A DNA stretch of 55,335 nt from Basidioascus undulatus (lineage: Eukaryota). The notes below the pieces were generated by a model that saw only the letters and a list, made by a program, of their open reading frames with translations, did no database searches and was not told where the DNA came from. This document shows, in pieces, positions 8,586-55,029 of the stretch. A program made the translations under genes and the position numbers. Location of the stretch: contig JTLS01000009.1 of NCBI GenBank assembly GCA_000826855.1, positions 1 to 55,335 on the forward strand. Reading direction: 5' to 3'. How positions within the stretch are numbered: position 1 is the first letter of the stretch; every line of letters begins with the position of its first letter.

Positions 8586-9361
8586 TTAAGCCTCGACAGG
8601 GACGTTGACCTGAGAAGACCAAGGCCGGTGAGCAGACGTGCGACAGCGGAGCGCGCAAATAACCGACACCCACCTCCGGGTTGAAGAAGAAGGACTGGTT
8701 GCCAGCCCAGGGCATGGGCTGTCAGGACGGTAAGAGGTTAGCAATGCGCGCGCCAGGAAGGCCGTGTTTTGGAGAAGTGTTTTGAGAAATGGACATGCCT
8801 TCTCACGCTCTATGTATCCGTTCACCATCATCGGTGAGCAAGAGATCCACAGCCGTCCCAAAGGAACGCAAAGCAGACGCACTGTTCAGGTAAGGGTAGT
8901 CGGCGCGGCGGGGGATCTCGCCGCCGTTCTCCGCCTTGAGGTGCTCAAGGTGAGCGTGGTGCTCGGCCTCGGCTTTGCGGACCCAGACATAGCCGACAAG
9001 GCCTAGCCGTATCGACCCCACCCGCAGGAACATCTTCAGCCCGGCTTTCTCTCGCGTCCGCCTTCCCGCCAGACCACTCACAGGAGGGGATCGCGACGTA
9101 GAGCGAGATCTTGCGCCAGAGGTCAGCCGCCTCTGTCCGAGTGACCCAAGCTACCCGCATCAGTGTCCTGCGCATTCGAAGAGCGCCACTGAGATGACGG
9201 AGGGACGGACCCTTGGCGTGCTCCTTGACGTGCTGACGCTGCTGCATGAACTCGGAGTTGCCCTCGATGGGGAGGACGACGCCCTCAGAGGCGGGCTTCG
9301 CGGAGGCGTAGGTGCGGCGGCCGACAAGGCGCGCGGCGGGGCGGGCAGCGAGGCGGAACAT
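8586..9361 (-). CDS. COX13: Cytochrome c oxidase subunit VIa, 6 exons
   Basis: MFRLAARPAARLVGRRTYAS presequence; F..QRQHVKEHAK|AADLWRKISLYVAIPS|CLVGYVWVRKAEAEHHAH..YPYLN|KREK|PMPWAGNQSFFFNPE|VNVPVEA*. These are the hallmark COX6A motifs. Confidence 0.95.
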
Positions 9362-9819
9362 GGCGGTGAGGATGGGCGAGAGAACGATGATGGAGGGGAG
9401 GAGGAGAGCAGTGTGAGCGCCCCTGCGCCGAGTCGAGCCACATTCGCGAATCAGAAAGCGGCGGAATTGCGGAATTGCCCGCGGTCGTGCGCGTTCTCGT
9501 TTGTTTTCTTTGCTTTTTCTTTTCTGCAACTCTGTTGCCACATGAAAAACTTCCACCCAGTTACTGTAAACAAATGTTCAAGGAAAGGTATAGCAGGGAA
9601 GACCCAACACTAACCATCCACTGGCCTGCGAACCTCTTGCACGTCACCGTAGATCCCCGGCCGTACCCGCCGGCCGTGTTACAGAGCAGCGGTCTTCAAC
9701 ATGCGGAAACATGCGCTGAAAAGTTCGGTGAAGACGGAAGCAAGCTCTCCTGTAGAGCAAGGCTTGTGGTATGAGGCTGGCGCTCTGGAAAAAACGCTGG
9801 GATTGACTTATGGGAGAAA

Positions 9820-9883
9820 GTTCGCTGAGAGTCTTGTTCGCTGCGAGTCTTGTTCGCTGCGAGTCTTGTTCGCTGCGAGTCTT
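9820..9883. repeat. Tandem minisatellite, 4 x 16 bp (GTTCGCTGCGAGTCTT)
   Basis: Units at 9820, 9836, 9852 and 9868; the first carries one substitution. There are no spacers. Confidence 0.95.
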
Positions 9884-10226
9884 CCGAGGCAAGGACGCAT
9901 CCAAGAGACAACCGGAGCCCTCCTAATGACCTCCCATGACATTCGTACGCTTCAAAACAGCCCATATCTACCCATCTACCGCTCACCACTTACTGTGGAG
10001 CGTCGCCTTCTGGCTCAGCCCCAGCCGTTTCCCCCTCGCCCTCGCCTGTACCCGCAAGATCTAACCCGTTCATCCCCTCCCAGCCCGGACGCCAATCGGC
10101 ATCTGCTTCCTCCTCCTCGTCGCCCCATTCGGTCATAACAGGCTTGCCGGCGTACCAAAGCTCGAAGAGCTGATCGTCGTCCGAGAAGAAGCCCTGCTCG
10201 ACGGCCTACACACCAAAACATTTATG

Positions 10227-13200
10227 TCAGCTTCGTTCGATGTAATTGGCTAGCGAGAGTCTGCGCACCATGTATGCGTCCATCTCAGGACCGAGCGTCT
10301 CGACCCAGCGCACGAATGCGTTCTGCTCCGAGACGGCCGAGCGTGTGGGCCGCGCAGCGCGGCGGGTCGCTTGAACGCGGAAGAGGTGCGTGCGCGTTTC
10401 AGGCTCGAAGTCGAGACAGGCGTTCGCGCGCATGAAGGCCCAGAGCATCTCGAAGACTCTGGTTGAAGTGGAACGAGCACGAAGTGGGAAGCATTGTCAG
10501 CAGGAACGTCAGCGCCGGACAAGAGAATGGCTTCAAACGTACTCATCAATGCGCCGGTCGATCTTCTGCCACATGAGCGTCTTGGAGATGGTCCAGTACA
10601 CGAGCGTGATATCCTCGCCCTCGAAGACGTCGTTTGGAAACCGCTTGCCCTCCTTCAGCGCGTCCCGCAGCCAAGTCGGCTCCTCGGGCAGGCCGCGCTC
10701 CCGCAGCGCCTCGGTAACCTTGGTGCGAGCGTACTCAGCGAAGGGCACCGGTACGAACAGCGCGAGCACCATGGGCGTCGCAAACGCCTCCGCCAGCGTC
10801 GCGCCGTACGACATGCGTTGGAGCGTCGGGCGCGAAGGGCTCAGCAGCCGGTTCTCGTGGGTCGGCGGCGGCGCGTCCGTATGCGAGCGATGCCCCGTGA
10901 GCACGGGGTAACCGGTACCGGCAAGGCTCTGGGGCGCGTCGTCGTTGGGAGGGCGCTTCTGGTGGTACGCCTCCGAGGGGTGGATGCCGCTCGCCTTCAG
11001 GTTGTCGCGGAAACTGCACCATTCGCGCAAGTTGTACGCGTCTATCGCGGCTTTGTAGCCGTCGGGGGAGAAGTCTTTGTCCCACGTGTAGCTGTGCAGG
11101 AGAGGAACGTCAGTGAAAGGGTAAAGGTGTGTGGCGTCCAGTGTTGCGTATGCTGCCTATCGGCATCGGCTCACCTCGGCGCATCGTCGTACGAGTTGCC
11201 CTCGCACCTTGCGTACGCGTCCGTTGCCCAGTGCTTGTCGTCGATGCTGCAAAGCGAGCAATGGCGAATCGAGGAGGACCAGCCGCTGTGAGCGACTGAA
11301 CAGTGCTGTCCTTCGTTTCTACTCACATGAGCTTGCCGTCGCATTCGGTCTCCCACATCCCGACATGGCGCATGAGCAAATCGAAGCTTGTCAAGCAGCT
11401 CCGCCCGCCCGGCTCCGCAGCGTTCGCGCAGCGAGGGTCCACGAGTGCATGCGTCCATACAGGGACCTTGAGGGCGGGATCGAGCGCCGTTTCCGGAATG
11501 CCGTCGTTCTTGTTCGGCGGCATCTGCTCAGGGAGACATTAACTCGAAGCTAAAGCACGAGAAGGGAACTAGCCAGCACTTACGTTGTTCCAGCCATAGT
11601 AACGGGTGAGTCGACGGAAGATCCACTGGAAACGGGCCCGGGCCTTGTCGGCACGCGCGGCAAGGTCGAGCTCGTGCGACTCCAGGATGGAGATGTATGA
11701 CGGGAGAAAGCGGATGCCGAAGCCCTGGAAAGTGTCCCAAGCCAGCATGCATACGAGGTTAGAAGGCTTCATAGTGCGCTTTCAACGCAACTCTAATGGG
11801 CTGCTGACCTTGTCCGCATACTTGAAGACTCTGGAAACGCAGTAGACATGGTCAGAATTGAAATTGGACACTTCGTGCGCTGGACGTACCTCTGCTCCTG
11901 AGACGCCCTGCGGTCGCCCAGCCAGTGCCCTTCGGGAAGATCCATGGTGAAGACGTTGTACGACGCTAGATGGTGCAATCCGGCGATGATAAGCCGCAAG
12001 ACAAACGTCAAGGTAAGAGATTCGAATCCGAACGCACTTTGCAGCGCACGCACCGCGCGAGGGAGCATCCAGACCTCAGCGCCGTCCCAGGCAACGGCGC
12101 AACAGTCAAGGTCGAAGTTGAGGAGGACCTCCGTCGGACTCTGCGTGCGCTTGAGCACAACCTGCACGCGGCGGGTCGGGTACGCGCTGAAGAACGTGAC
12201 GGTGCGTGAGTTGCGGGTGACGAGCATCGGTGCGCCCTCGGGCAGGTTGCGACGGTAGACGGCCTCGATGTGCTCGAGCTTGGCGTTGAGCGCGGGCGGG
12301 TCGAGGCCGTAGAGGTAGAGGTCGATGTCCGAGTTCTGCTGCTTGAGGTCCTCGGCCGCTTGCTCGGTGGCATCGTCCCGCGGGACGTTGAGCAGCGTGC
12401 CGAGGACGATCCCGCCTGCGACGCAGACGTTGGACCAGTCGAGCCCGCGGAGAATCCCGCCCGTTACACGGTCCCAGGCGGTCGTGAAGCTGGCCGAGTC
12501 GCGGTGGACGGTGCGCGACGCAGGGCACTTGCGGTCGAGGATGCCGTAGCCGGGCAGATCACTCGGACGAGGAAGGACTCGGGCGTGCGGGGTGACCGAG
12601 CTGGTTTCGGGCGAGTCGAAGAGAGACGGGAATGCCGAGAGAGGGACGAGAAAGGACTGCCAGGTGCCGGGACGGGCGTGGAGGTACGCGCGAACGTGGT
12701 GCTCGTTCTGGAGGATCCTGCGTACCAACATGCGAAAAAATAAGGTCAGTATTGAATACTTGCCCCAAAAGATGCTCATGGAGAGCGCACCAGTCATCGA
12801 CGTCGGCAGCGCCTCGGCCTTTGGTGCTCATGAAGACCGGGTAGGGCACCTTGTACGACGACAGGATCTGTCAAAAGTATGGCTTCAAGTGAGCGAATGT
12901 AGCAAACAGGTAGCGGTTGATCGTGCGCACTGTGTCTTTAACATGTCCGTCCGGCAGCTCCTCGACGGCATTGAGCCCGTCCTCGAGATCCTGGGCGAGC
13001 AGGCGCTCTACCTTGTCGAGCGTTGCAGCAAACAGCGTCGACGCGCTGTCCTTCGTCGGCTCAGGTATACCAGGCACTGCGCCTGTGCTCAGAGCGGCGT
13101 TCTGTGCGCGATGGAGCGCGAGTTGGACTTCGACGACGCCGATAGCCATCGCACCCAGGCCGCCGTCGCGCTCCTGCTTGACCAGCGAGCGTACCGGCGC

Positions 13201-13365
13201 GGCCGCGGACATGGAGATGGTCGCCCCGGCGCCATACGCTTGGTCTCGGGGGTGCGACGATCCGTGGCGTATTTGCGGGGTTGGTCGGTCAGAGAGTTCG
13301 TAAAGATCGTCGGCGTCGGTGGACGCGTCAAGATGCTCCTGGGCGTTGAGCTCAGGATGCGCCAT
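10227..13365 (-). CDS. Uncharacterised protein with a Pol-beta-superfamily nucleotidyltransferase-like domain, multi-exon
   Basis: GILRGLDWSNVCVAGGIVLGTL..NSDIDLYLYGL..YPTRRVQVVLK..EVLLNFDLDCCAVAWDG..YNVFTMDL..RRASQEQ|RVFKYADK|GFGIRFLPSY..EPGGRSCLTSFDLLMRHVGMWE. The exon junctions checked join in frame through GT-AG introns. The start (MAHPELNA, 13365) is tentative. It ends RLSLANYIERS*. Confidence 0.75.
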
Positions 13366-13982
13366 CGAGCAGGAAGATTGAGAGTGATGGTGGTGGTGAA
13401 AGAGTAAGACGCGAAGGAGGCTACTCATTTGTGGGCTCACAGCGGTCGGTGCACAGCATGTGGCGGTGATACATCTGTAACGCCGTGACAGGGCACAGGA
13501 GACCTGGTGTCTCCCGTCGGAGGTGTGCGCCGGCAGATGACTGGTCTCTACGTTTGACGTTGTGCAGTCGCATTTCACCACAAACGACAGAACTTCTAGC
13601 ACATTCAGAATCATCCAAACCACAGTAGTTTAGTGATTGATGCCGGCGGAGCCTCCCCTGCAGCAGCAGATTAACGGTGCGAGAACAAACCGTGTAGTGT
13701 CGATCCGCGATGGCACGTCTGTCTGCCTTGTGGATCTGACCTTCGACCGTGATAGCGATTCTTCTTCTATCGCAAAGCCCCGAATACGTATTCTAGCTAC
13801 AATCAATCCTGGCTTCCCGCATGGGCGGTCCAGCCGAGTGCCATGTGTGCGCGTCAGTCTCAGTGCCAGACTGAGAACCACAAATTGGAGCAGCAAAGAG
13901 TCCGCGAGTGATAATCAAAGAATGTATAGTCCAGGCATCTACGGCCTCGCAGACAACAGAAGACTGCAGGCAGCGCCGGCCC

Positions 13983-16656
13983 TCACCGCTGCTGGGGCAG
14001 GAAGAACGAGTCGATCTTTGCTTCCAGCTCTTCGGGCGTATAGCGCATATCTGAAGAACACCAAACATAACTGTCAACACGCGCACTACCCGAGTCTTGC
14101 GGTGATATGGGCGGAGAAAGGGTACGCACACTTTTGCGGATCTGCACAGCCGTTGCACCAATAGGAGATCAGCCATGAACGAACGTTCGGGGAGGTGGGA
14201 TAAAGCAGCAATGACGCACTCTTCGAAAACTCGCCACCGCGGTTCTTTCCCCACAAGGTCGCATAAGCCGGCAGGAGCATAGCCTTCGCCTCCTTGGCGA
14301 GCCTATCCCTCAGCTGGTCATCCACGTCCCTCGAAACGACGCCCCCTCCGCCTCCAACGCGGTGCGTGCGCTCGAGCGCGTCGACCTCATCGTTCAAGCG
14401 CGCAAACTTCTCCTTGACGGGCGCCTGCGGCGCGGTGAGGGCCATGAGCGCCGGGCGCCAGACAGCGTCGAGGTAGGCCTGGCGGGCGGAGCGCAGCGCG
14501 CGGTTCAGGTCGTCCTCTGCTGGCGCGCCGAGCAGGTCCGAGATGTCTTGTGGCGGGGGATCGGTTGGATGGGGGGTGAGCGAGACGGAGGAGGGCGCGG
14601 TGGGGGACTCGATGAGCTGCCGGCGGAGGTAGGAGAGGGAGGAGAGGAGGGAGATGGTCGATTGTGGGGTGGGGCGGTTGAGGGCCGCGAGGAGAGTGGA
14701 CAAGAGCGCCGAGAGCACGTCGCCTGCGAGAGCGGGGGAGTTAGGTGAGCGGAGAAGTGGGGAAGAGCGGACAAAGCGGGGTCACGAACGGAGGTAACGC
14801 TCGAAGATGACTTGGCCGTCGAGTCCGGCCTCGCGCCCTCCAGTATGGGGCAAGACCTTTTGGCCCATGTGCCAGTTGCCGTCGCCGAGCGTCTCAAGCA
14901 ATGGCTCGACCGTCGACGCGTACTGAGGCAGCTCGCGGAGGTAGTTGACCGTCTGCGTCGAATCAAGCAAATGAGGATGCGCCACACAGCTGCGGGGACG
15001 GTGAAGGGGAGACCAAGCGCACATCGTACGTCAACTCCGACACGCCAGCCGTCTTCATGTCCGGTCGAGCTCCTCGGGCCTGCCAGCGAAAAAAAAAGCG
15101 GTATGAGGTAGAGCCTGGTTAGCCAAAGTCCCCACTTTCGCCACATCGAACAACGCACCTTGATCTCCTCAATAACCTCCGGGAAGCTCCTGAGCCCAAC
15201 GCCCCTTAGCTTCTCCCCCAGCGCAGCGACCTCGTTCTCCCTCGCGCCATCAACCGCGCCAGCCCTGCGCTTCCCAACGCTCTCGCCCCAGTCGCGCGCG
15301 CGCGCCCGCGCAGCGTCGTACACGTCCAGCGCGACAAACACATGCCGGAGCGTGTTCTGCCTGACGAGCGCGAGGAGCGCGTGCTGGAGGTTCTGGATCG
15401 CGCTCGCCAGCGGCGCGGAGACGATCGCGCTGAAGACGTCCTGCGGGATCGGGCCGGCGGAAGAGGAAGGGGAAGAAGGAAAGAGCGCTTCCGCGAGCTC
15501 CCACTCCACGGACGCCATCTCGCGTGCGGCGTCGATGAGCTCGCCTGCGCGGTGCGAGCCGCGCGTGTAGGGCATTGCGCCGAGGGGCCCAGCAGCGGAA
15601 GGCGAGCCGAGGGAGGATTCGGCTGCGCGGGCGAGCGAGGCGAGCGAGGCGGAGACGTAGGACGCGCGGTGGGACGTGTAGAGCTGGCTGGGGGGCGTGT
15701 ACGACTTGGAAGGGAGGGGCGCTATAAGCGGCTGGAGCGCGGTGAGGAGCGCGGAAAGCCGGTTCATCGGCGTGGGCGGGATCGGGGGGAAGGCCATGCC
15801 TGTACGACGGCCGACGTGAGTAGGTGGAAAGCGGGAAGCGAAGTGCACCATGCACTTACCCGTCGTGGAGTAGTCCTCCGCATCGACAGGGATGCTCTCG
15901 TCCCTGACCCACTCCTCGAAGATGACGAGCAAGTTCCGCACGCCGACCTCGAGCATGTGCGTCTGTCCCGTCCCCACACTCAGTAAGCGCCTTCACACCT
16001 CTCCCCTGAGCCAATCTGCGGGTTGCGCACCATATCGCGCACTGCGTCACGGGATGAGCGCAGGTCCGACTTCTGGAGGTACGCGAGCTGCTGCGCGAGG
16101 CGCTGGAGCGTCTTGATGTACGGTCGGAGGTCCGAGCGGTCTGGCCTATTCCGCCACGCTATTCTCAGCTGGAAATTGAATCTTGGGAGCGGGAGAGCGC
16201 GTACCCAGCCATGACAATCCGCTCGTCCTCGGTCGACACGTCCTGGTGCTGGCGCACCGTGTCCATGGCCTTCAGCGTCGCGTCGATGTCTTCCCACCCC
16301 ATCCCAGATCATCAGCATTCCCTGTCCGCTCGCTCGCATGCCTCACCGCAATCCTCATTCAACACGCACTAGACTGCAGCCTCGTCAAGCCCTGCGTGGA
16401 CTTGTGAATCGGAAGGATGGAGGACTCGAGCCTGACCAAACGCGAGTCAAACTGGTTCAGGATCCCTGTTCCCCCATGAGGGATCCTTCCCATTCAGATG
16501 CTCTCCGGGTATGAGGATGCGGGAGCGGAGGGGCACAGACACACCCGTCATGCGGTTCGTGAGGTTCTGGACCTTGGCCAGGTTCTGCTGGAGCAGCTCG
16601 ACCTCCGCCAGCGCGTCCGCGTCCGCCGCGGCGGCGCTCGTGGCGGTGGGGGACAT
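13983..16656 (-). CDS. EXO70: Exocyst complex component Exo70
   Basis: N-terminus DALAEVELLQQNLAKVQNLTNRMT; LESSILPIHKSTQGL; RSFPEVIEEIK; AYLDAVWRP; VKEKFARLNDEVDALERTH..DDQLRDRL..LLPAY; C-terminus FSK|NPQK|YMRYTPEELEAKIDSFF. Confidence 0.93.
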
Positions 16657-17212: not shown

Positions 17213-18253
17213 TCATGCCCCCAGCCCAAAGTACCACCGCAGCGTTGCCCTCGCGACGTTGAGGCCGAGCAGGCTGAGGACGTAGCCGCCTATGGCGAGG
17301 AGGCCGGGGAGGAGGAGAACCTCTGAGCGGATGAGGAAGGGGAGGGCATTGAAGCCGAGGAAGGTGATGTAGATGTATTGGAGGATCTGGGGGTGGGGGG
17401 CGGTAGACGTGGACGGTGGAGCACGTTAGGGGCAGCAGGAAGCCGAGAGGGAGGGAGAGCGCACAGCAATGAGGTAAAGCGTGTTGCCGAGGAAGAGGCA
17501 CACCCATTCGGGCCGGGTGAGAAGGGGCGAGAGGAAAAGCTGAGCGAGGTCTGTTGCGCGCCGAGGGAGGAAGGGAGGGGGTCAACCGAGGTGTCCTTCC
17601 CGGGGGACTCAGCAGAGGTCCGAAGAAGAGGACTTACACAAGAGGAGCAAGAACGGGAAGAATCCATTCGCGTGCACGTCAAACGCGTACGCCCACTCGA
17701 CGCGACTGGACGCGCCGGCGGACGAGTGCGAGTGGGGCGAGTGGACGAGCAGCGCGTTCGCGAGCGCCCAGAGCGCGGTGGAGATGACGAGGCCGACGGC
17801 GAGGAAGTCGAGGAGGACCATGCGAAGCGCGAGGAGGAGCGTGCCGGACCAGCCGAGGCTGTAGCGGATCCCCCAGAGCGCCGCGCAGACGCACAGCGCG
17901 AGGCTCATCAGCACCGGCACGGCCAGGTCGTCTCGCGCCCAGCGGTTTTTGGTTTCTGCCGAGAAGCGGGGGTTTGAGGACGGGGCAGGGGGAAGGGAAG
18001 TAAGGAGAGCCACCAACGCACGTTTGTGATAGTACACGTTCCGGTACACCCTCCTCGGCGCAACACACAGGTACGTGAGCTGCCAAGCCGCGAGCTCGAA
18101 GTCCATGCGCCGGAACAGCGCGCGCCAGGACGGCGGACGGAGGGCCCTCCGGCCGCCAAATGGTCGTGATGACGCGCCCGATGATGATGATGATGAAGTG
18201 GGGAGCGTTCCGGACTGGGAGGAGGAGGCAAGGGAGACTGGGAGGATGGCCAT
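17213..18253 (-). CDS. GMH1: UNC-50 family Golgi membrane protein
   Basis: RRMDFELAAWQLTYLCVAPRRVYRNVYYHK|TKNRWARDD; VEWAYAFDVHANGFFP; LFLGNTLY; YIYITFLGFNALPF. It ends WYFGLGA*. Confidence 0.93.
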
Positions 18254-35360: not shown

Positions 35361-38300
35361 TCACTTCTTGTGCCCGTTCTGGTTCTGGCCCACGCCGGGG
35401 GAGAGCTCCCGGAGCGCGTCGTCCGCACGCTTGAGGTCGCCCTCCGTGAGCGTCTGCGGCTGGAGCGCGTTATCGCCGTCGAGCGCGTAGCCGGGCGTAC
35501 TCGACCCGGAGCCGAACGCGCTTTGCGGGTTCCGCCGCCGCTTGATGCTGTTCCCGCCCCGCCCCACACAGTCAGCCCAAGTCAGCCGGCTAGAAGATGA
35601 GACTCCTCGGGGGAGAAGAAAACTCACGTCATCGGGAACGGGTACTCGTCCACCTCCTCCTCTGTCCCGTCAGACGCCATCTGGCGCCAGATCTGCGCGC
35701 CGTTGTAGTCGGACGTCTGGAGCGACTGCATCTCCTCCTGATCTCGCACAACCCACCTTCGTCAGCCCACGTCTCTCTTCGGCGTTAAACTGAGCATGCT
35801 CCTCGCCAGACGCACCGTAAGTGTCCCAATGTCCCCAGGCGTCATCGCACCCGCTGCGAACCTCGGGCTGCCCGGCGCGGAGAATGGCGCGGGGACCTTG
35901 GTGTGGCCGGACTCAAAGTCGAAGTCGTCATCGGTGAAGGAGTCGGGGTACGCGCGGCGGAGGGCGAGCTGACGCGCCTTTGCGTACTCGATCCCGAGCG
36001 ACTTCCAGTCGAGGAGGTCCGACAGCCGCTCGGTCCGGTTCCGCTGGTTGATGCGCTGCCGGCGCGTCTTCTGGCAGAAGTGCACCATCTGCGAGCGACG
36101 AAAGTAAGAGCAAATGTCAGTGCGCGAGTCTCGATGGCCAGGGGATGCTTGACAACGCACGTGGTCGGTCAGCTCGTTCACAGAGTCCTCGACGGACTTT
36201 GCCCTCCGGTCGACAATGTCTGTTGAAAACCCCGACTGCGTCAGCTATCTTTGCCCAAGCGGTCTACCCCAATCTTTTCGCTGAAATATACAGATGCCGT
36301 AATCTTGAGAGTTCTCGATCAGCTCGTCCATGAAGCAGCCGAAGCCAGACAAGTTGGTCTGTGCACCGTACGCCACCCATCAGCATGCCATCCCCTCCGC
36401 GTCCAAAGCGGGCCACGGGAACGAAACGTACCGTGATAGACGGGATACCCATGACGGTGCACTCGGCGGGGGTGTACCTGCGGGTCCGCCCCGCCCGATC
36501 AGTTCTGGCGCCCGAGTTCAAGTTCGATCAGACCAACGCACCCCCAAGGCTCGTAGTAGGACGGGAAGACGCCGAGGTGGCAGCCGCGGACAAACTCCTC
36601 GTAGTCGAGACCGAGGATGGGGTTGTTGGAGTTCAAAAACCTGATCGATAAGCCCACACACTATCAGTCGCGCTGCCAGCATTTCGGCTGCATAACCCAA
36701 AACTGAACTGACTCGGGGTGGAAGATGACCTTGACACGGTCTTGCGGGCGGTTGAAGAGCTGTACGCGGCGGAGTTCTGTGTGTCCCGGTCGTCGCGTCA
36801 GGAATACAGCTGTGCATTGAGGCCTGGAGAGGGAGGAGAGTGCAAATGAACGACGCACGGTTCAAGATCGGGTCCGCGGCGTCGTCGGCCATGTTGTGGG
36901 TGACGATGGGCGGGAGCGAGTTGCGCCTGAGCGCAAACACCCTGCGCTTGAGCGCGATCTTGTCAGCAGAGGAGAGGAGCTCGGCGGGGTCGAGGATGTC
37001 GCCAGTCGCCTCGCTGGTTTCACCACAAGCGCAAGAGTAACAGTCAGTCACGCTGCACCTCCTCGTGCACGAAAGAAAGGAAGGGAGGCAGATGGAAGAG
37101 AGCGACAGACCTGTACCGCGCGGCCTTCTCAAATAGCCTCTGCCCGACACGCTCCTGGATTTGCGTGACGGTGTCGCGGAGCTGCTTGACGACGGCCTGG
37201 CCCTTGAGCGCCTCGATCGTGTAGCTGTGCGTCGCAGCGGGCATGATGATGAACGCGACGACCGTCACTTTGGACCCCATCTTTTGGAGCCGGTAGTTGA
37301 GGCCTGTTCCGTCGCCCCGTCTTTCAGCGAGCTGAACGGGGGAAAGGGAATGCGGGGAAGGGGAAGGTGGAAGGGGAATGACGCACGTGCGAGCGACTCG
37401 ACGAACATGTCCACGCCCTTGTTCCGGTACTCGTATCGACCAGCCGTAAACAGGTAGAGGGTGTTGTCCTGCACCCCATCCACCGCCCAGCATGAGCTCG
37501 CGCCCTTCCTGGAGCTTCCGCATCTTTCGAAGACGCACAAGGTCAAAGTCGTAGTGCCCGTAGAAGTGTCCGCGGATGAAGTCGTCGATCTTGGCCTTTG
37601 ATTGGGCGTGCTGTTCGTGAGGAGGAAACAAGTACGTTAGCGCACTGAGGCTAGGGGAAAGGGGTGGAATGATGGGCGCACAAGGTTTTGGAACTCGTGC
37701 ATGGCGGAGAACTTGACGACGTTCAGGCCGTTCGGCAGAACTCCGTCTGTTGATGTAGGACACATCTCGATCAGAGGACGTCTGGAAAGGTTAAGCCAGC
37801 CACGCTACGCACCGGGTTTCCGCTTCAGCAGGTGCTCCGACTCATATGCGGTCTGTCACCCCCCCACCCCAGCCCAAATCAGCACAACGCCCTGCCCATC
37901 TTGCCCCGCTGCAACTCACGATGTGCGAAACAGTCGTAAACACGTCCGCGGTGTGCGCCGCGCTGCGCTCGATGCAGTAGCGGTGGTAGATGCCGCGCTT
38001 GCCGGCCTCGTGGTCGACGTCAAAGTACTGGAGGTTGTTGTAGAAGTCGACGGAGCCCGCGCAGAGGTAGCGGCCGAGCAGCGTCGCGTGCGTCGTGAAG
38101 ACGGTCGTCACGTCGATGTGCCGCTTGCGGCAGAGCGGGATCGCCAGGCCCGCTTGCCACTCGTGGAAGTGCGCCACGACGGCGAGCTTGCGCTCGTGCG
38201 CGAGGTACTGAGGGAAAAATGAGGGAAGTGAAGGGAAGGCAGGGAGAGTGGGGGGAGAGGGGGCCGCAACGCACCTCGCCAAGGAACCATGCGACGAGAT

Positions 38301-39298
38301 ACCCAAACACGATAGTCTCGTTCGTCTCGTGGTCGTTGGGCGGTGTGGGGATGCCGGCGATGTTCCAGAGGTCGCCCTTCCATTCGTCGAGGCGGTCGTA
38401 CACGCTGCCGGTGTCGAAGAGGAGGACCTTTGGCGCGCCCTCGATGAGCCAACGGCCATAGAGGAGCTTGACGCCGCGCGACTGCATCGCCTTGAGCGTC
38501 GCGGCCATCGCGGGCGAGTCGGGTTTGATCGCCTCCACCTCCATCGGCGCCGTCTTATACGAGAGCGGGCCGATCAGGCAGTAGCGGTTGCCCTAGCGCG
38601 CGCACAGCGTAAGGGAGATTGTGTTGGGGGAGAGGTGAGCAGCGGGAAGAGACTCACATATTCAGCGCATGTTACAGGCGCTTTTGTCTTGATGACGGTG
38701 TAGATACCGCCGACTATTCACGTCCGTCCATCCCCCCCGTTCGCAGCGTGAGCAACTCAGCACGGAAATTCGAGTCCAGGGCGAAGTTGAGTGTGAATCA
38801 AGCGAGAGCCACCCCGTGCATGAATGAACCTTCCCGCTCCGCTCGCCGCGGCCAGGGGCGGCAGCGCGTATGCTCCAACATCGACCACCCGACCTCCCAG
38901 CATGAAAAAAGTGCTACATGCGAGCTCGATGGGGATGAGGATGAGCGCGCCAGGATGCGAAGCTGCCCGCGCTCGCGAGCGTCCGAATGCGAGAGCGCAA
39001 GGAACCGGGGGATGCGGGGCCATGTCTGCCTAAGAAACGAGCGTCATGCTTGCCGATCACCGCGCCCATCCCAGCGCTGCCTCTCCCTCCCCAGCAGCAT
39101 TCCCTTCCTCCCATACACGGAGAGAGCAACAGGAAGAGAAGAAGGGATGCCACTGACCCTTGTTCGCGACTTCCCATGCGCACCTGCCCCAACGGTTCGC
39201 CCCGTCAGCCCCAAGAAGACGCGCGAAGACGGGTGGGGAGGGACGCACTCGAAGAGGAGGCTGTTGTGCACGTCTCGCCGTATCGGCTGCTCGGACAT
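35361..39298 (-). CDS. GSY1: Glycogen synthase (GT3)
   Basis: [92 protein letters not shown] region; [31 protein letters not shown] tail. Confidence 0.98.
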
Positions 39299-52608: not shown

Positions 52609-53995
52609 TCACGCACTCCCCGTCCCCTCACGCAGCCACCATAGCCTTACAGCACCGTCGTCGCCCGAGGAGGCCAGGACGTTCTCCATGTGCGCGCGCT
52701 CGCGCATACTCGTGCCCGGCGCGGGCACGGTGAAATCGTCTTCTTGAATAGACTGCGAGAGGGGCTTTGAGGAGGCGTCTGAGGAGGCGGAAGGAACGGG
52801 ACACCATGCGACGGAGTTGATGTCGTGGATGCCGTGGGCGGAGGGGCGGGTGGCGATGGGCGGGATGGTCGGCGGGGAGGAGGGATTGGAGGGGTCAACC
52901 ATCTGCAGAGGAAAGGGAGGTGAGGCTGATGTATCGCGTATGCGAGGAGAGAGAAAAGGGGACGTACGACCTGGAAGATCCGAATCACGCCGTCTCCACC
53001 AGCACTCGCGATCCTGCCCCTTCCGCCCTGCTCCCGAGGGACCCCTCCCGTGCCCCACGCAACGCTGTAGATCGTGCGATCATGCGCGCCCTCCACGCTC
53101 GCGACGACCTCCCACGTGTCCTCGTCCTTCTTCCAGCTTGTCGGCATCGCGCCGTCGCCCCTCCGCTCCGCGGTGCGCGTACGGCCCCAGACGCGGAGCG
53201 AGAGGTCGTCCGAGCCGGAGAGGAGGAACTGGCCGCAGGGCGAGAACGCGAGCGCCCAGACGGTGGACGTGTGCGCCTTGAGCCGCCCGGTCACGTACCA
53301 GTCGTCCGTTGGGTCGTCGACGTACAGGTTGATCGTATCGTCGTAGGATGCGGACGCGAGCAGCTCGTCAGTCGGGTGGAAGGCTACGGATTTGACGTCC
53401 TGCGAGTGCTCCATTTGCACGGAGAGACACTCGGGGTCGCAGCCGGGTTGGACTGGGCGAGTAGGGGGCGTTAGCCTGGTAAGGGGTGAGAAGAGGGGTG
53501 GTAGGGGGAAGACGCACTCTCCCAGATCCACACCGACTTGTCGCGTGAGCAGCTGGCCAGGAGGGTTCCGGACGCGGAGAACGCAACGCTCTTGCACTCG
53601 CTCTCGTGCCCCTCCAGCACGCTCACGCACTCCCACGTGCTCCCCCCGCCCTCCTCCCGCTCCCAGAGGCCTACGCTCGAGTCAAAGCTCGCAGTAGCGA
53701 GCATGCGCCCGCCGGGCGCCCACGCGAGCGCGCGCACGGTGCGCCTGTGCTCTGTCGGGAGCGGGGCGAGCTCGGTCCATTGGAGGTCGGCGGGCGTGGG
53801 CGCGGAGGCGGAGAAGGGGAGGGAGAAGGTGTAGAGCCGGACGGACTTGTCGCCTGAGCAGGAGGCGAGGAGCGGCTGGGAGGGAGAAGGGTTGAACGAG
53901 ACGTGCCATGCGCGGTCGGTGTGCGACGTGAACGCGTGTAGGGGCACGAGAGAGTGCGTCTCTGTGCTGGGCAACGGGGTGTTCTCGGGGATCAT
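52609..53995 (-). CDS. CIA1: Cytosolic Fe-S assembly WD40 protein Cia1
   Basis: HTDRAWHVSF..LLASCSGDKSVRL; HRRTVRALAWAPGGRMLATASFDSSVGLWE; WECVSVLEGHESECKSVAFS..LLASCSRDKSVWIWE; ECLSVQMEHSQDVK..LASASYDD; AHGIHDINSVAWC; LASSGDDGAVRLW. Confidence 0.95.
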
Positions 53996-55029
53996 CCTGC
54001 CGTGACTGGCAGCCTCAGGCAGGTCAGACTCGAGCTGGTATCTTGAGAGGCGCTTCGAGATGCTCCGTTTGACGTACCTTTCAGGTATACGATTGAGGAA
54101 GACCGGCGGCGGTGGTAAAGGGCCGCCGGCTCGCTGACGAGAGCGCGGTGACGTTGTTAGGCAGGCACGGCGCAGTCGCACTATTCACTATTCACTATAC
54201 AGTTTGTAGATTGCGATTCTGCAGCAGGCAGTCGCAACGAAACAGACATGAAACCTACCTTACTGGGCGCTATGTGGGGCACTACAGCTATGCATTAGGG
54301 AAGATAACATGCACCGGCAGCGAACACTCAGTCGGCCGAAAGGTCAGATTGCAGGTACTGCCCACGTACAATTCTCGTGGAAAATAAAAAGCTGTATTCT
54401 GAGGTGGGAAGACCTCGGTGAGAGTACTTTATCTGCTTGTGGTGCCAACAACAAGCAGTACGTTGCGGACGATACACTGTTACGCAGCGCGGTTTCGCAG
54501 CGAGTCGGCGGGGCAGGCTTGAGCTCTGCTCTGTCCGAACAGCCTCGTAACGCACTCCCATTACCAAGGAGTTCTGCTATATACGCAACCGCTATTTGGG
54601 TATGCTATGATTTCCTGATGAAATTCTGTCATGCAGGCGTGCAGTGTGGGTGCCTCTGAACGGTCACACGAGACGGGACATCCCGATCTGTACTGCCAGG
54701 CAGTTCACATTTGGAGGTTTGGCGGCAGGTTTTCCGTAATTAAAACCCGATCAAAACACCAGAATAATATGAATGACTATGTCTGAACCTGCAGTGCAGT
54801 CAATGCTTCGGGCCACTCACAGCAGAAGAGAAAAGTAAAGGAGACAAGATTATTCAGCGTTTCCCATTCAAGATTCTGGACAAGGTCCCTTCGCCTGCGT
54901 CTTCTCGTCCTCTGCCGGACGACATTCTCCTCTCCTCGATTTCGCTTGTTCTTCCTCCTCCCTTCCCCCGGTCCTTCTTCCTTCTCCACCGACATTCTCT
55001 GAGTGGTCGGATTCAGTCGCGTTCTGCAC

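Follow-up and report, generated by a model that had tools for sequence, protein, structure and literature searches.

We analyzed a window of 55,335 nucleotides (nt) from the fungus Basidioascus undulatus (assembly GCA_000826855.1, contig JTLS01000009.1, positions 1 to 55,335), with a G+C content of approximately 60%, and focused our attention on a gene on its minus strand that is predicted to encode a nucleotidyltransferase (NTase)-like protein. Around this gene, the minus strand consists of open segments with shifting frames, split by short stretches bordered by GT...AG. As judged from sequence signals and homology, which underlie both the predicted splicing and the choice of start codon, the locus is a single, intact, intron-containing eukaryotic nuclear gene running from 13365 to 9990 on the minus strand. 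Its spliced coding sequence (CDS) has 2655 nt in 11 exons and encodes 884 amino acids (aa) without any internal stop, and all ten introns are of the GT-AG type, with lengths of 59-84 nt. The gene is considered intact because of this stop-free spliced CDS and the ten regular introns; moreover, the protein matches 88 of the 97 columns that are at least 90% conserved in 130 homologues, and keeps all eight invariant ones. A first-pass annotation of the same DNA had already described the gene as intact, and the motifs that it quoted (DID at 12329-12321, RVQVV, LLNFDLDCCAV and RVFKYADKGF) were found at the claimed sites in the minus-strand translation. The extent it gave, a single open reading frame (ORF) at 10227..13365, had to be replaced, as the stop codon at 10229-10227 lies in intron 10 and the 11-exon gene ends at the TAA at 9992-9990. 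The parts of the gene are given below, where P0169 stands for the best homologue, a hypothetical protein of 759 aa from Botryobasidium botryosum.

9990..13365, minus strand: whole gene (splice model from the sequence; phmmer comparison with P0169)
12931..13365, minus strand: exon 1, N-terminal region specific to the fungal family (donor GTGCGC at 12930, set by an alignment of nine homologues)
12791..12867, minus strand: exon 2 (junction ..DVDD-W/ILQNE, which fits the family consensus DxDEWILxNE)
12038..12717, minus strand: exon 3, NTase-like core, residues 172-397 (GG at 272-273, D301/D303, Q356, N371-F-D373-L-D375)
12422-12411, minus strand: peptide VAGG in exon 3
12332-12306, minus strand: peptide SDIDLYLYG in exon 3
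12321..12329, minus strand: D301-I302-D303, predicted metal-binding Asp pair (strand E131-136 of the structural model)
12173-12150, minus strand: peptide RRVQVVLK in exon 3
12162..12164, minus strand: codon of Q356, putative class II third-carboxylate position (at the beginning of strand three following DxD)
12093..12125, minus strand: LLNFDLDCCAV with D373 and D375, counterpart of class II motif B (RRDFTINA) according to profile alignments
11965-11890, minus strand: exon 4 (splice model)
11891-11713, minus strand: peptide RVFKYADKGFGI, spliced over introns 4 and 5 and containing RVFKYADKGF
11830-11809, minus strand: exon 5 (splice model)
11724-11584, minus strand: exon 6 (splice model)
11713..11965, minus strand, exons 4-6: SYNVFTMDL...RVFKYADKGFGIRFLPSYI, end of the domain in common with phage Gad2, where it reads RVQKYxDKGYxI (hhalign; P0169 junctions)
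11523-11327, minus strand: exon 7 (P0169 alignment)
11246-11175, minus strand: exon 8 (P0169 alignment)
11091-10543, minus strand: exon 9 (P0169 alignment)
10458-10269, minus strand: exon 10 (P0169 alignment)
10269..11523, minus strand, exons 7-10: conserved C-terminal extension, with GRSCLTSF, YDDAPSYTWD and WQKIDRRIDEVFE (P0169 alignment)
10206..10268, minus strand: intron 10, 63 nt, GTGCGC...TAG, holding the stop at 10229-10227 (splice model)
9990..10205, minus strand: exon 11, acidic tail, stop TAA at 9992-9990 (splice model)

A first splice model gave a protein of 880 aa, and its numbering applies to the residues of the P0169 alignment and to the acidic tail, which counts 23 D+E versus 2 K+R in residues 801-880. 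Compared with P0169 by phmmer, the 880-aa model matched with an E-value of 1e-143 over residues 155-599 and 651-819, spanning junctions 2 to 10, and the homology runs through the junction of intron 10 (..MDAYM/AVEQGF). The donor used by that model at 12942 (GTTAAA) was rejected, as the donor GTGCGC at 12930 restores the family spacing in the N-terminal alignment of nine homologues. Translation plausibly begins with the ATG at 13365; an alternative in-frame ATG lies further upstream, at 13426-13428 on the minus strand, and would add 21 residues (MSSLLRVLLFHHHHHSQSSCS), including a run of five His. The C-terminal extension holds a low-complexity linker of 71 aa, a region that measures 7-66 aa in the 130 homologues. 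A hidden intron inside this linker is possible, and was not adopted in the model, as no good donor/acceptor pair was found there. Intron 3 (11966-12037, minus strand) has 72 nt and is free of stops and in frame, which is why exon 3, intron 3 and exon 4 are read as one ORF of 334 aa (11793-12797) by a bacterial ORF finder.

The read-through translation of exon 3 matched 1,854 cluster representatives, among 1.84 billion, at E<=1e-3, 854 of them at <=1e-10 and 142 at <=1e-30; for the exon alone, the best E-value was about 1e-64 (7e-64). Homologues of 603-2000 aa numbered 219 at E<=1e-10, and the named proteins among the 120 matches listed are all "hypothetical proteins" of agaricomycetes, from Mycena, Botryobasidium, Sistotremastrum, Serendipita, Clavulina, Lentinula and other genera. 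Several species hold many copies among the matches listed (at least 11 in Clavulina sp., at least eight in Mycena filopes and at least six in Botryobasidium). The window holds one copy. As paralogues bear adjacent locus tags on the same contig (P0169/P0009 and P0212/P0218, in Botryobasidium botryosum and Clavulina sp.), tandem duplication of the family in some agaricomycetes is suggested. In a FastTree tree of 216 domain sequences, the window protein fell within the agaricomycete copies, with a local support of 0.876 for its nearest group, and it shares 36-40% identity with the best of its full-length relatives. More remote members were found in the ustilaginomycete Tilletia, in Dactylellina and Piccolia, and in the amoeba Balamuthia, so that the eukaryotic branch includes mushroom-forming fungi, Tilletia, ascomycetes and Balamuthia. 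The Balamuthia relative is named "Ankyrin", and no ankyrin repeat was found in it by local Pfam searches. Besides, one 1442-aa protein of Gymnopilus dilepis (P0100) has an N-terminal WD40 repeat and a Gad2-like domain near residues 1051-1207, an arrangement that may reflect either a true fusion or the merging of two genes in the annotation.

Regarding the identity of this family, the precomputed label PF26128.2 was present on 120 of the 120 long homologues listed, and the name given to PF26128 in the ESM Atlas is Gad2, for Gabija anti-defence 2. The founder of the family is the Gad2 protein of Bacillus phage SPbetaL7, annotated in OQ921347.1 (CDS 109563-110765, 400 aa), and the label was also found on 119 of the 120 homologues listed for it. 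When residues 200-420 of P0169 were used as query in the ESM Atlas, Gad2-labelled clusters of Ascomycota, Rotifera, Haptophyta (fused to BTB) and Nucleocytoviricota were matched with feature scores of 0.95-0.96 and template-modelling (TM) scores of 0.75-0.80 (0.75-0.76 for Nucleocytoviricota). At the sequence level, the domain-only hhalign comparison of the fungal profile (130 sequences) with the phage Gad2 profile (42 sequences) reached a probability of 81% and an E-value of 1.2e-5 over 148 columns, the whole-length profiles gave 6.5e-4 with a probability of 27%, and the fungal profile against the single SPbetaL7 sequence gave 0.11. Pairwise searches reached less far: BLASTP against SPbetaL7 Gad2 was marginal (E 0.026 over 52 aa), and a tblastn search of 50,697 phage records with the exon as query returned no match at E<=1. 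Phage Gad2 itself matched 199 phage records by tblastn, only ten of which covered at least 80% of the protein, and most of the matches listed fall within its residues 1-196.

The fungal protein is very probably a member of the Gad2 family (PF26128), as indicated by its homologues and by profile comparison, and the family domain probably corresponds to its central ~200 residues (about 245-440). It has in common with phage Gad2 an N-terminal domain of ~170 residues of the latter, with the motifs (V/I)AGG, (S/N)D(I/V)DxY, Q(I/M)(V/I), FD(L/F)(D/T)xC and RV(F/Q)KYxxKG(Y/F)xI in the same order; relatives of both proteins carry the PF26128 label, and both are predicted to be NTase-like. The differences are also clear. 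The fungal protein has 884 aa versus 400 aa for phage Gad2, with unrelated N- and C-terminal regions; it carries an insertion of ~14 residues that separates GG from DxD, and has D where phage Gad2 has T at position four of motif B; and, unlike phage gad2, its gene is spliced, chromosomal and placed between housekeeping genes. The gene had been called an orphan encoding an undescribed enzyme, and neither description holds, given the 1,854 representatives and a family already catalogued in Pfam under the name of a phage anti-Gabija protein. The relatives in fungi and giant viruses that the first-pass annotation had mentioned, some of them named for ankyrin, did turn up in the homologue and viral-structure searches.

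According to bioRxiv 10.1101/2023.05.01.538930, SPbetaL7 requires Gad2 to resist Gabija, and an NTase domain was predicted in the protein by AlphaFold; the gene from SPbetaL7 proved toxic to B. subtilis, while a non-toxic homologue abolished Gabija defence, and anti-Gabija activity is reported there only for Gad2 of SPbetaL7 and its homologue from a Brevibacillus prophage. A phage protein of the same family is described as cytotoxic in bioRxiv 10.64898/2026.09.15.751885, where it cuts growth of P. putida at high induction. No mechanism for Gad2 is given in 2026 reviews (PMC12904381, PMC13670838 and PMC13728456), and our literature search, as far as papers were accessible to it, found no paper tying Gad2 to eukaryotes, fungi or giant viruses, and none for PF26128. 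As Gabija is a bacterial system, the role of the fungal protein must differ from that of phage Gad2. We know of no Gabija system in fungi, and therefore an anti-Gabija function is not expected here.

We then examined the putative active site, with conservation counted over the non-gap rows of 254 eukaryotic proteins (268 domain rows) and 120 phage-side proteins. Each residue of the Asp pair, D301 and D303, is kept in 241/250 eukaryotic rows and 119/119 phage rows, which agrees with the conserved Asp pair expected of an NTase. At position 356, Gln is found in 249/254 eukaryotic and 119/119 phage rows, where a carboxylate would be expected in a classical enzyme; motif-B D373 and the next Asp, D375, are found in 253 and 254 of 255 eukaryotic rows, respectively; and R423, K426 and Y427 are kept in 220, 204 and 209 eukaryotic rows, and in 119/119 phage rows each. 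In phage numbering, D45, D47, Q88, D106, R151, K154 and Y155 are each present in 119/119 rows. The window protein carries all of these residues (D301, D303, Q356, D373, D375, R423, K426 and Y427), together with the other family-invariant positions, G272-G273 and F372. The signature hG[GS]..DhD ascribed to the protein is thus present as far as GG and DxD are concerned, but the spacing between them is 27 residues, as opposed to the canonical 9-13 and to 13 in phage Gad2, and in the structural model an extra helix lies between the two motifs.

This AlphaFold2 model, built for exon 3 (226 aa, residues 172-397) with 110 homologues, has a mean predicted local distance difference test score (pLDDT) of 92.0 and a predicted TM score (pTM) of 0.87. 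Its elements follow the order strand (VCVA)-GG-helix, inserted helix, strand (DIDLYLY), helix and three strands, the third of which begins with V-Q356. In class II enzymes, an alignment of 24 sequences of poly(A) polymerases (PAP) and CCA-adding enzymes, built from PF01743 loci, also has three strands after DxD, the third being (I)EVATFR, and a relaxed, low-confidence hhalign comparison pairs Q356 with the E of IIEVAT. Foldseek returned no match to the Protein Data Bank (PDB) at E<=1e-3; every one of the PDB matches listed is a Pol-beta-type nucleotidyltransferase or NTase-like protein, namely TENT5/FAM46, Cid1, TUT1/4/7, GLD-2, Trf4, OAS1, cGAS, pol lambda, pol X, PAP I, CCA enzymes and the DZF pair ILF2/ILF3. 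A second structure search, independent of Foldseek and run over 48,161 representatives, placed seven class II enzymes at the top, with the following scores:

4wby_A: 9.7 (root-mean-square deviation (rmsd) 2.9, 121 residues aligned)
3aql_A: 9.2
9kma_A: 8.6, Arabidopsis CCA-adding enzyme
1miv_A: 8.0, B. stearothermophilus CCA-adding enzyme
3wfo_A: 7.9
1ou5_A: 7.3, human CCA-adding enzyme
3h37_A: 7.3, CCA-adding enzyme

Here, we take 4wby, 3wfo and 3aql to be class II enzymes, the last of them E. coli poly(A) polymerase I. The non-canonical poly(A) polymerases TENT5/FAM46 (6jyj, 6w3i) scored below the class II heads (rmsd 4.1, 8% identity), and show no sequence link to the fungal protein. In the ESM Atlas, residues 200-420 of P0169 reached TM scores of 0.64-0.65 with bacterial CCA/PolyA_pol clusters, and PHROG 1614, "nucleotidyltransferase", was matched at E 6e-4. 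The phage Gad2 profile aligned with the PAP/CCA alignment over 141 columns (E 0.005), such that AGG...DxD falls opposite motif A, TFDFTVC opposite RRDFTiNA and LRVQKY opposite LRAxRF; the fungal profile matched motif A only (E 0.043), and a merged profile reached 0.0035. A search of the PDB by sequence gave no match for the exon, and a profile match to an antibody Fab at E 1.3 was taken as chance.

Overall, the modelled domain folds like a class II NTase head, and probably descends from one. This agrees with the class II-like reading proposed earlier, through both the fold matches of the exon-3 model and the co-linear motifs; the predicted structure does have an NTase-like core. From its sequence, however, the fungal protein is not a member of PF01743, the family of the class II CCA-adding enzymes (1miv, 1ou5, 3h37, 9kma) and PAP I (3aql), which it does not match. 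It differs from them in that Gln probably stands where their EVATFR strand has Glu, in a motif B that reads NFD, with D373 kept and without the Arg pair preceding the Asp, in that EDxxR did not appear in the part of the phage profile aligned with PAP sequences, and in showing no detectable similarity to neck, body or tail. Indeed, its N- and C-terminal regions showed no similarity to PAP/CCA enzymes or to the Gad2 C-terminus by hhalign (E 0.28-0.45), and the C-terminal region had no look-alike in the ESM Atlas (TM <0.3). With exon 9 as query, a search for longer homologues came back empty, a result that carries little weight.

Among the relatives found by structure, proteins of Nucleocytoviricota come closest to the fungal domain. 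Compared with predicted viral structures, the model gave 52 matches at E<=1e-3, nearly all of them from giant viruses, with a few tailed-phage proteins. The matches include the Fadolivirus protein A0A7D3QUG1, named "Ankyrin repeat domain-containing protein" (Foldseek E 1e-13, TMq 0.73, 27% identity), A0A2H4UVY7 of Bodo saltans virus (Foldseek E 3e-10), and a Clandestinovirus relative named "CCA-adding enzyme", as well as Pandoravirus, Pithovirus, Hokovirus, Hyperionvirus and Mimivirus relatives named BTB, F-box, VWFA, RING or ankyrin. Judging by these names, the viral proteins carry other partner modules. A scan of IMG/VR viral contigs with the family alignment yielded 39 pattern matches, none of them confirmed by tblastn, and the sequence distance to the viral relatives is therefore large.

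Regarding the neighbourhood, Pfam searches identified the following genes in the window:

8945-9556, minus strand: cytochrome c oxidase subunit VIa-like (COX6A), directly downstream (PF02046, E 2e-6, one ORF piece)
14086-15977, minus strand: Exo70 exocyst subunit C-terminal domain, directly upstream (PF03081, E 2e-10)
17609-18253, minus strand: UNC-50 family (E 2e-47)
36518-38459, minus strand: glycogen synthase, three ORF pieces (E 1e-14 to 2e-52)
52647-54181, minus strand: WD40 protein, two pieces

The COX6A-like gene apparently has introns, and an ORF of 490 aa (14505-15977) overlapping the Exo70 region had no Pfam match. The neighbours had been taken for decayed accessory genes; they belong instead to housekeeping families, and look split or decayed because intron-containing genes were read with a bacterial ORF finder. 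No signal of a defence island or mobile element was seen beside the gene in the stretch examined. Some 107 nt downstream of the stop codon, at 9820-9883, a 16-nt unit (GTTCGCTGCGAGTCTT, plus strand) is repeated 4.0 times with 97% matches, presumably in the 3' untranslated region or in intergenic DNA before the COX6A-like gene.

Taken as a whole, these results are in our judgement best explained, with a confidence somewhat above even, by an intact fungal gene whose product carries a Gad2-family, class II-like NTase head and performs nucleotidyl transfer. In such a mechanism, the domain would bind a magnesium-complexed nucleoside triphosphate (Mg-NTP) at the GG/DxD site, and would move the nucleotidyl group onto an acceptor hydroxyl. 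Most plausibly, this would be the 3' end of RNA or DNA, which leads among the candidates because the enzymes most closely related extend RNA 3' ends without a template. In CCA-adding enzymes, neck, body and tail set the choice of substrate and nucleotide; here, their place would be taken by regions specific to the fungal family, of ~240 aa at the N-terminus and ~450 aa at the C-terminus. As neither a templating neck nor a tRNA-binding body and tail was detected, the choice of both substrate and nucleotide would have to differ. As to the separate parts of this proposal, we lean slightly towards the protein being a catalytically active transferase, and regard a nucleic-acid 3' end as acceptor, which is argued by analogy, as a tentative suggestion that may well turn out otherwise.

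Several observations weigh against nucleotidyl transfer by a class II-like head. The position of Q356 is the main one: from the strand order and the low-confidence alignment, it likely occupies the class II third-carboxylate position, as had been proposed earlier, and in a classical two-metal NTase a Gln there should make catalysis less efficient, although the strands were shifted in one hhalign run. At the sequence level, the connection with class II enzymes is weak (E 0.005-0.3), and Pfam hidden Markov models (HMMs) gave no family at E<=1 for four pieces of the window, nothing at E<=0.01 for 15 of 16 homologues (and just WD40 for the sixteenth), and no NTase family at E<=10 for 42 phage Gad2 proteins; PF01743 had no match in the SPbetaL7 genome either. 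The nucleotide-templating motif EDxxR did not show up where the phage profile aligned with PAP sequences, neck and flanks lie outside the exon-3 model, and the assignment to PF26128 was made via the labels of homologues and profile comparison rather than by a direct HMM match. Moreover, the Gad2 mechanism is "yet to be elucidated" according to a 2026 review (PMC12904381), and a biochemical activity for any member of the family was not found in the literature as far as it was accessible to our search.

Based on these points, the protein could be a pseudoenzyme or nucleotide-binding module, in which two-metal catalysis was lost with the change from Glu to Gln, and which binds a nucleotide or a nucleic-acid end, or serves as a scaffold, while the flanking regions, or the ankyrin, BTB, F-box and VWFA partners in giant viruses, do the work. 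It is mainly the invariance of the Gln, which stands at the expected carboxylate in both the eukaryotic and the phage branches, that keeps such a pseudoenzyme, or an altered chemistry, under consideration. The giant-virus relatives are named for protein-interaction modules (ankyrin, BTB, F-box, VWFA, RING), NTase-fold pseudoenzymes do exist, with the DZF proteins ILF2/ILF3 and NF90/NF45 among the fold matches, and no activity of Gad2 is known according to PMC12904381. Yet DxD, the Asp of motif B and the GG turn are almost always kept, in the phage, fungal and other eukaryotic branches alike, as is typical of an active site that works. In dead NTases, these residues are usually the first to be lost. 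For these reasons, we consider a pseudoenzyme unlikely, though it is the strongest of the competing explanations. Less probable still is a nucleotide-signal synthase, producing cyclic or linear oligonucleotides, or an enzyme that nucleotidylates proteins or small molecules, alternatives of the kind that the first-pass annotation had raised. A genuine housekeeping enzyme, either tRNA CCA-adding or poly(A) polymerase, would fit the best structural matches, which are CCA-adding enzymes and PAP I, and the name of the Clandestinovirus relative. Nonetheless, it is very hard to reconcile with the lack of a PF01743 match, the Gln in place of the catalytic Glu, the NFD of motif B where RRD is expected, the EDxxR motif missing from the aligned stretch, and flanking regions without similarity to the PAP/CCA body or tail, and with a family that is multi-copy and fast-evolving, as the modest identity of the window protein to even its best full-length relatives illustrates; we give it almost no credence.

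Returning to nucleotidyl transfer by a Gad2-type head, one further possibility can be put forward, as a speculation that we consider improbable as it stands. Gad2-type heads with the invariant Gln might form a distinct enzyme class of phages, giant viruses and eukaryotes, acting in genetic conflict, e.g., by altering tRNA or the ends of DNA or RNA in ways that keep nucleases or sensors from acting. The expanded, tandem copies of agaricomycetes, including the gene described here, would then have immune or counter-immune functions, directed against mycoviruses or involved in allorecognition, instead of housekeeping ones.

For the genome of B. undulatus, this is an ordinary, intact gene of the accessory type, with a predicted function. 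The family is already catalogued as PF26128, and its fungal proteins have been deposited as hypothetical; a treatment of its eukaryotic and giant-virus branch did not turn up in the literature accessible to our search. Gad2 is a phage anti-defence protein that lacks an explained mechanism according to PMC12904381, and the same catalytic-looking module, with its unusual site where Gln replaces a carboxylate, is kept in a large eukaryotic branch, while the domain also occurs in many giant viruses. As the phage protein is toxic in bacteria, a soluble fungal or viral member could ease access to the chemistry of the family, and the gene may offer a handle on how Gad2 works.

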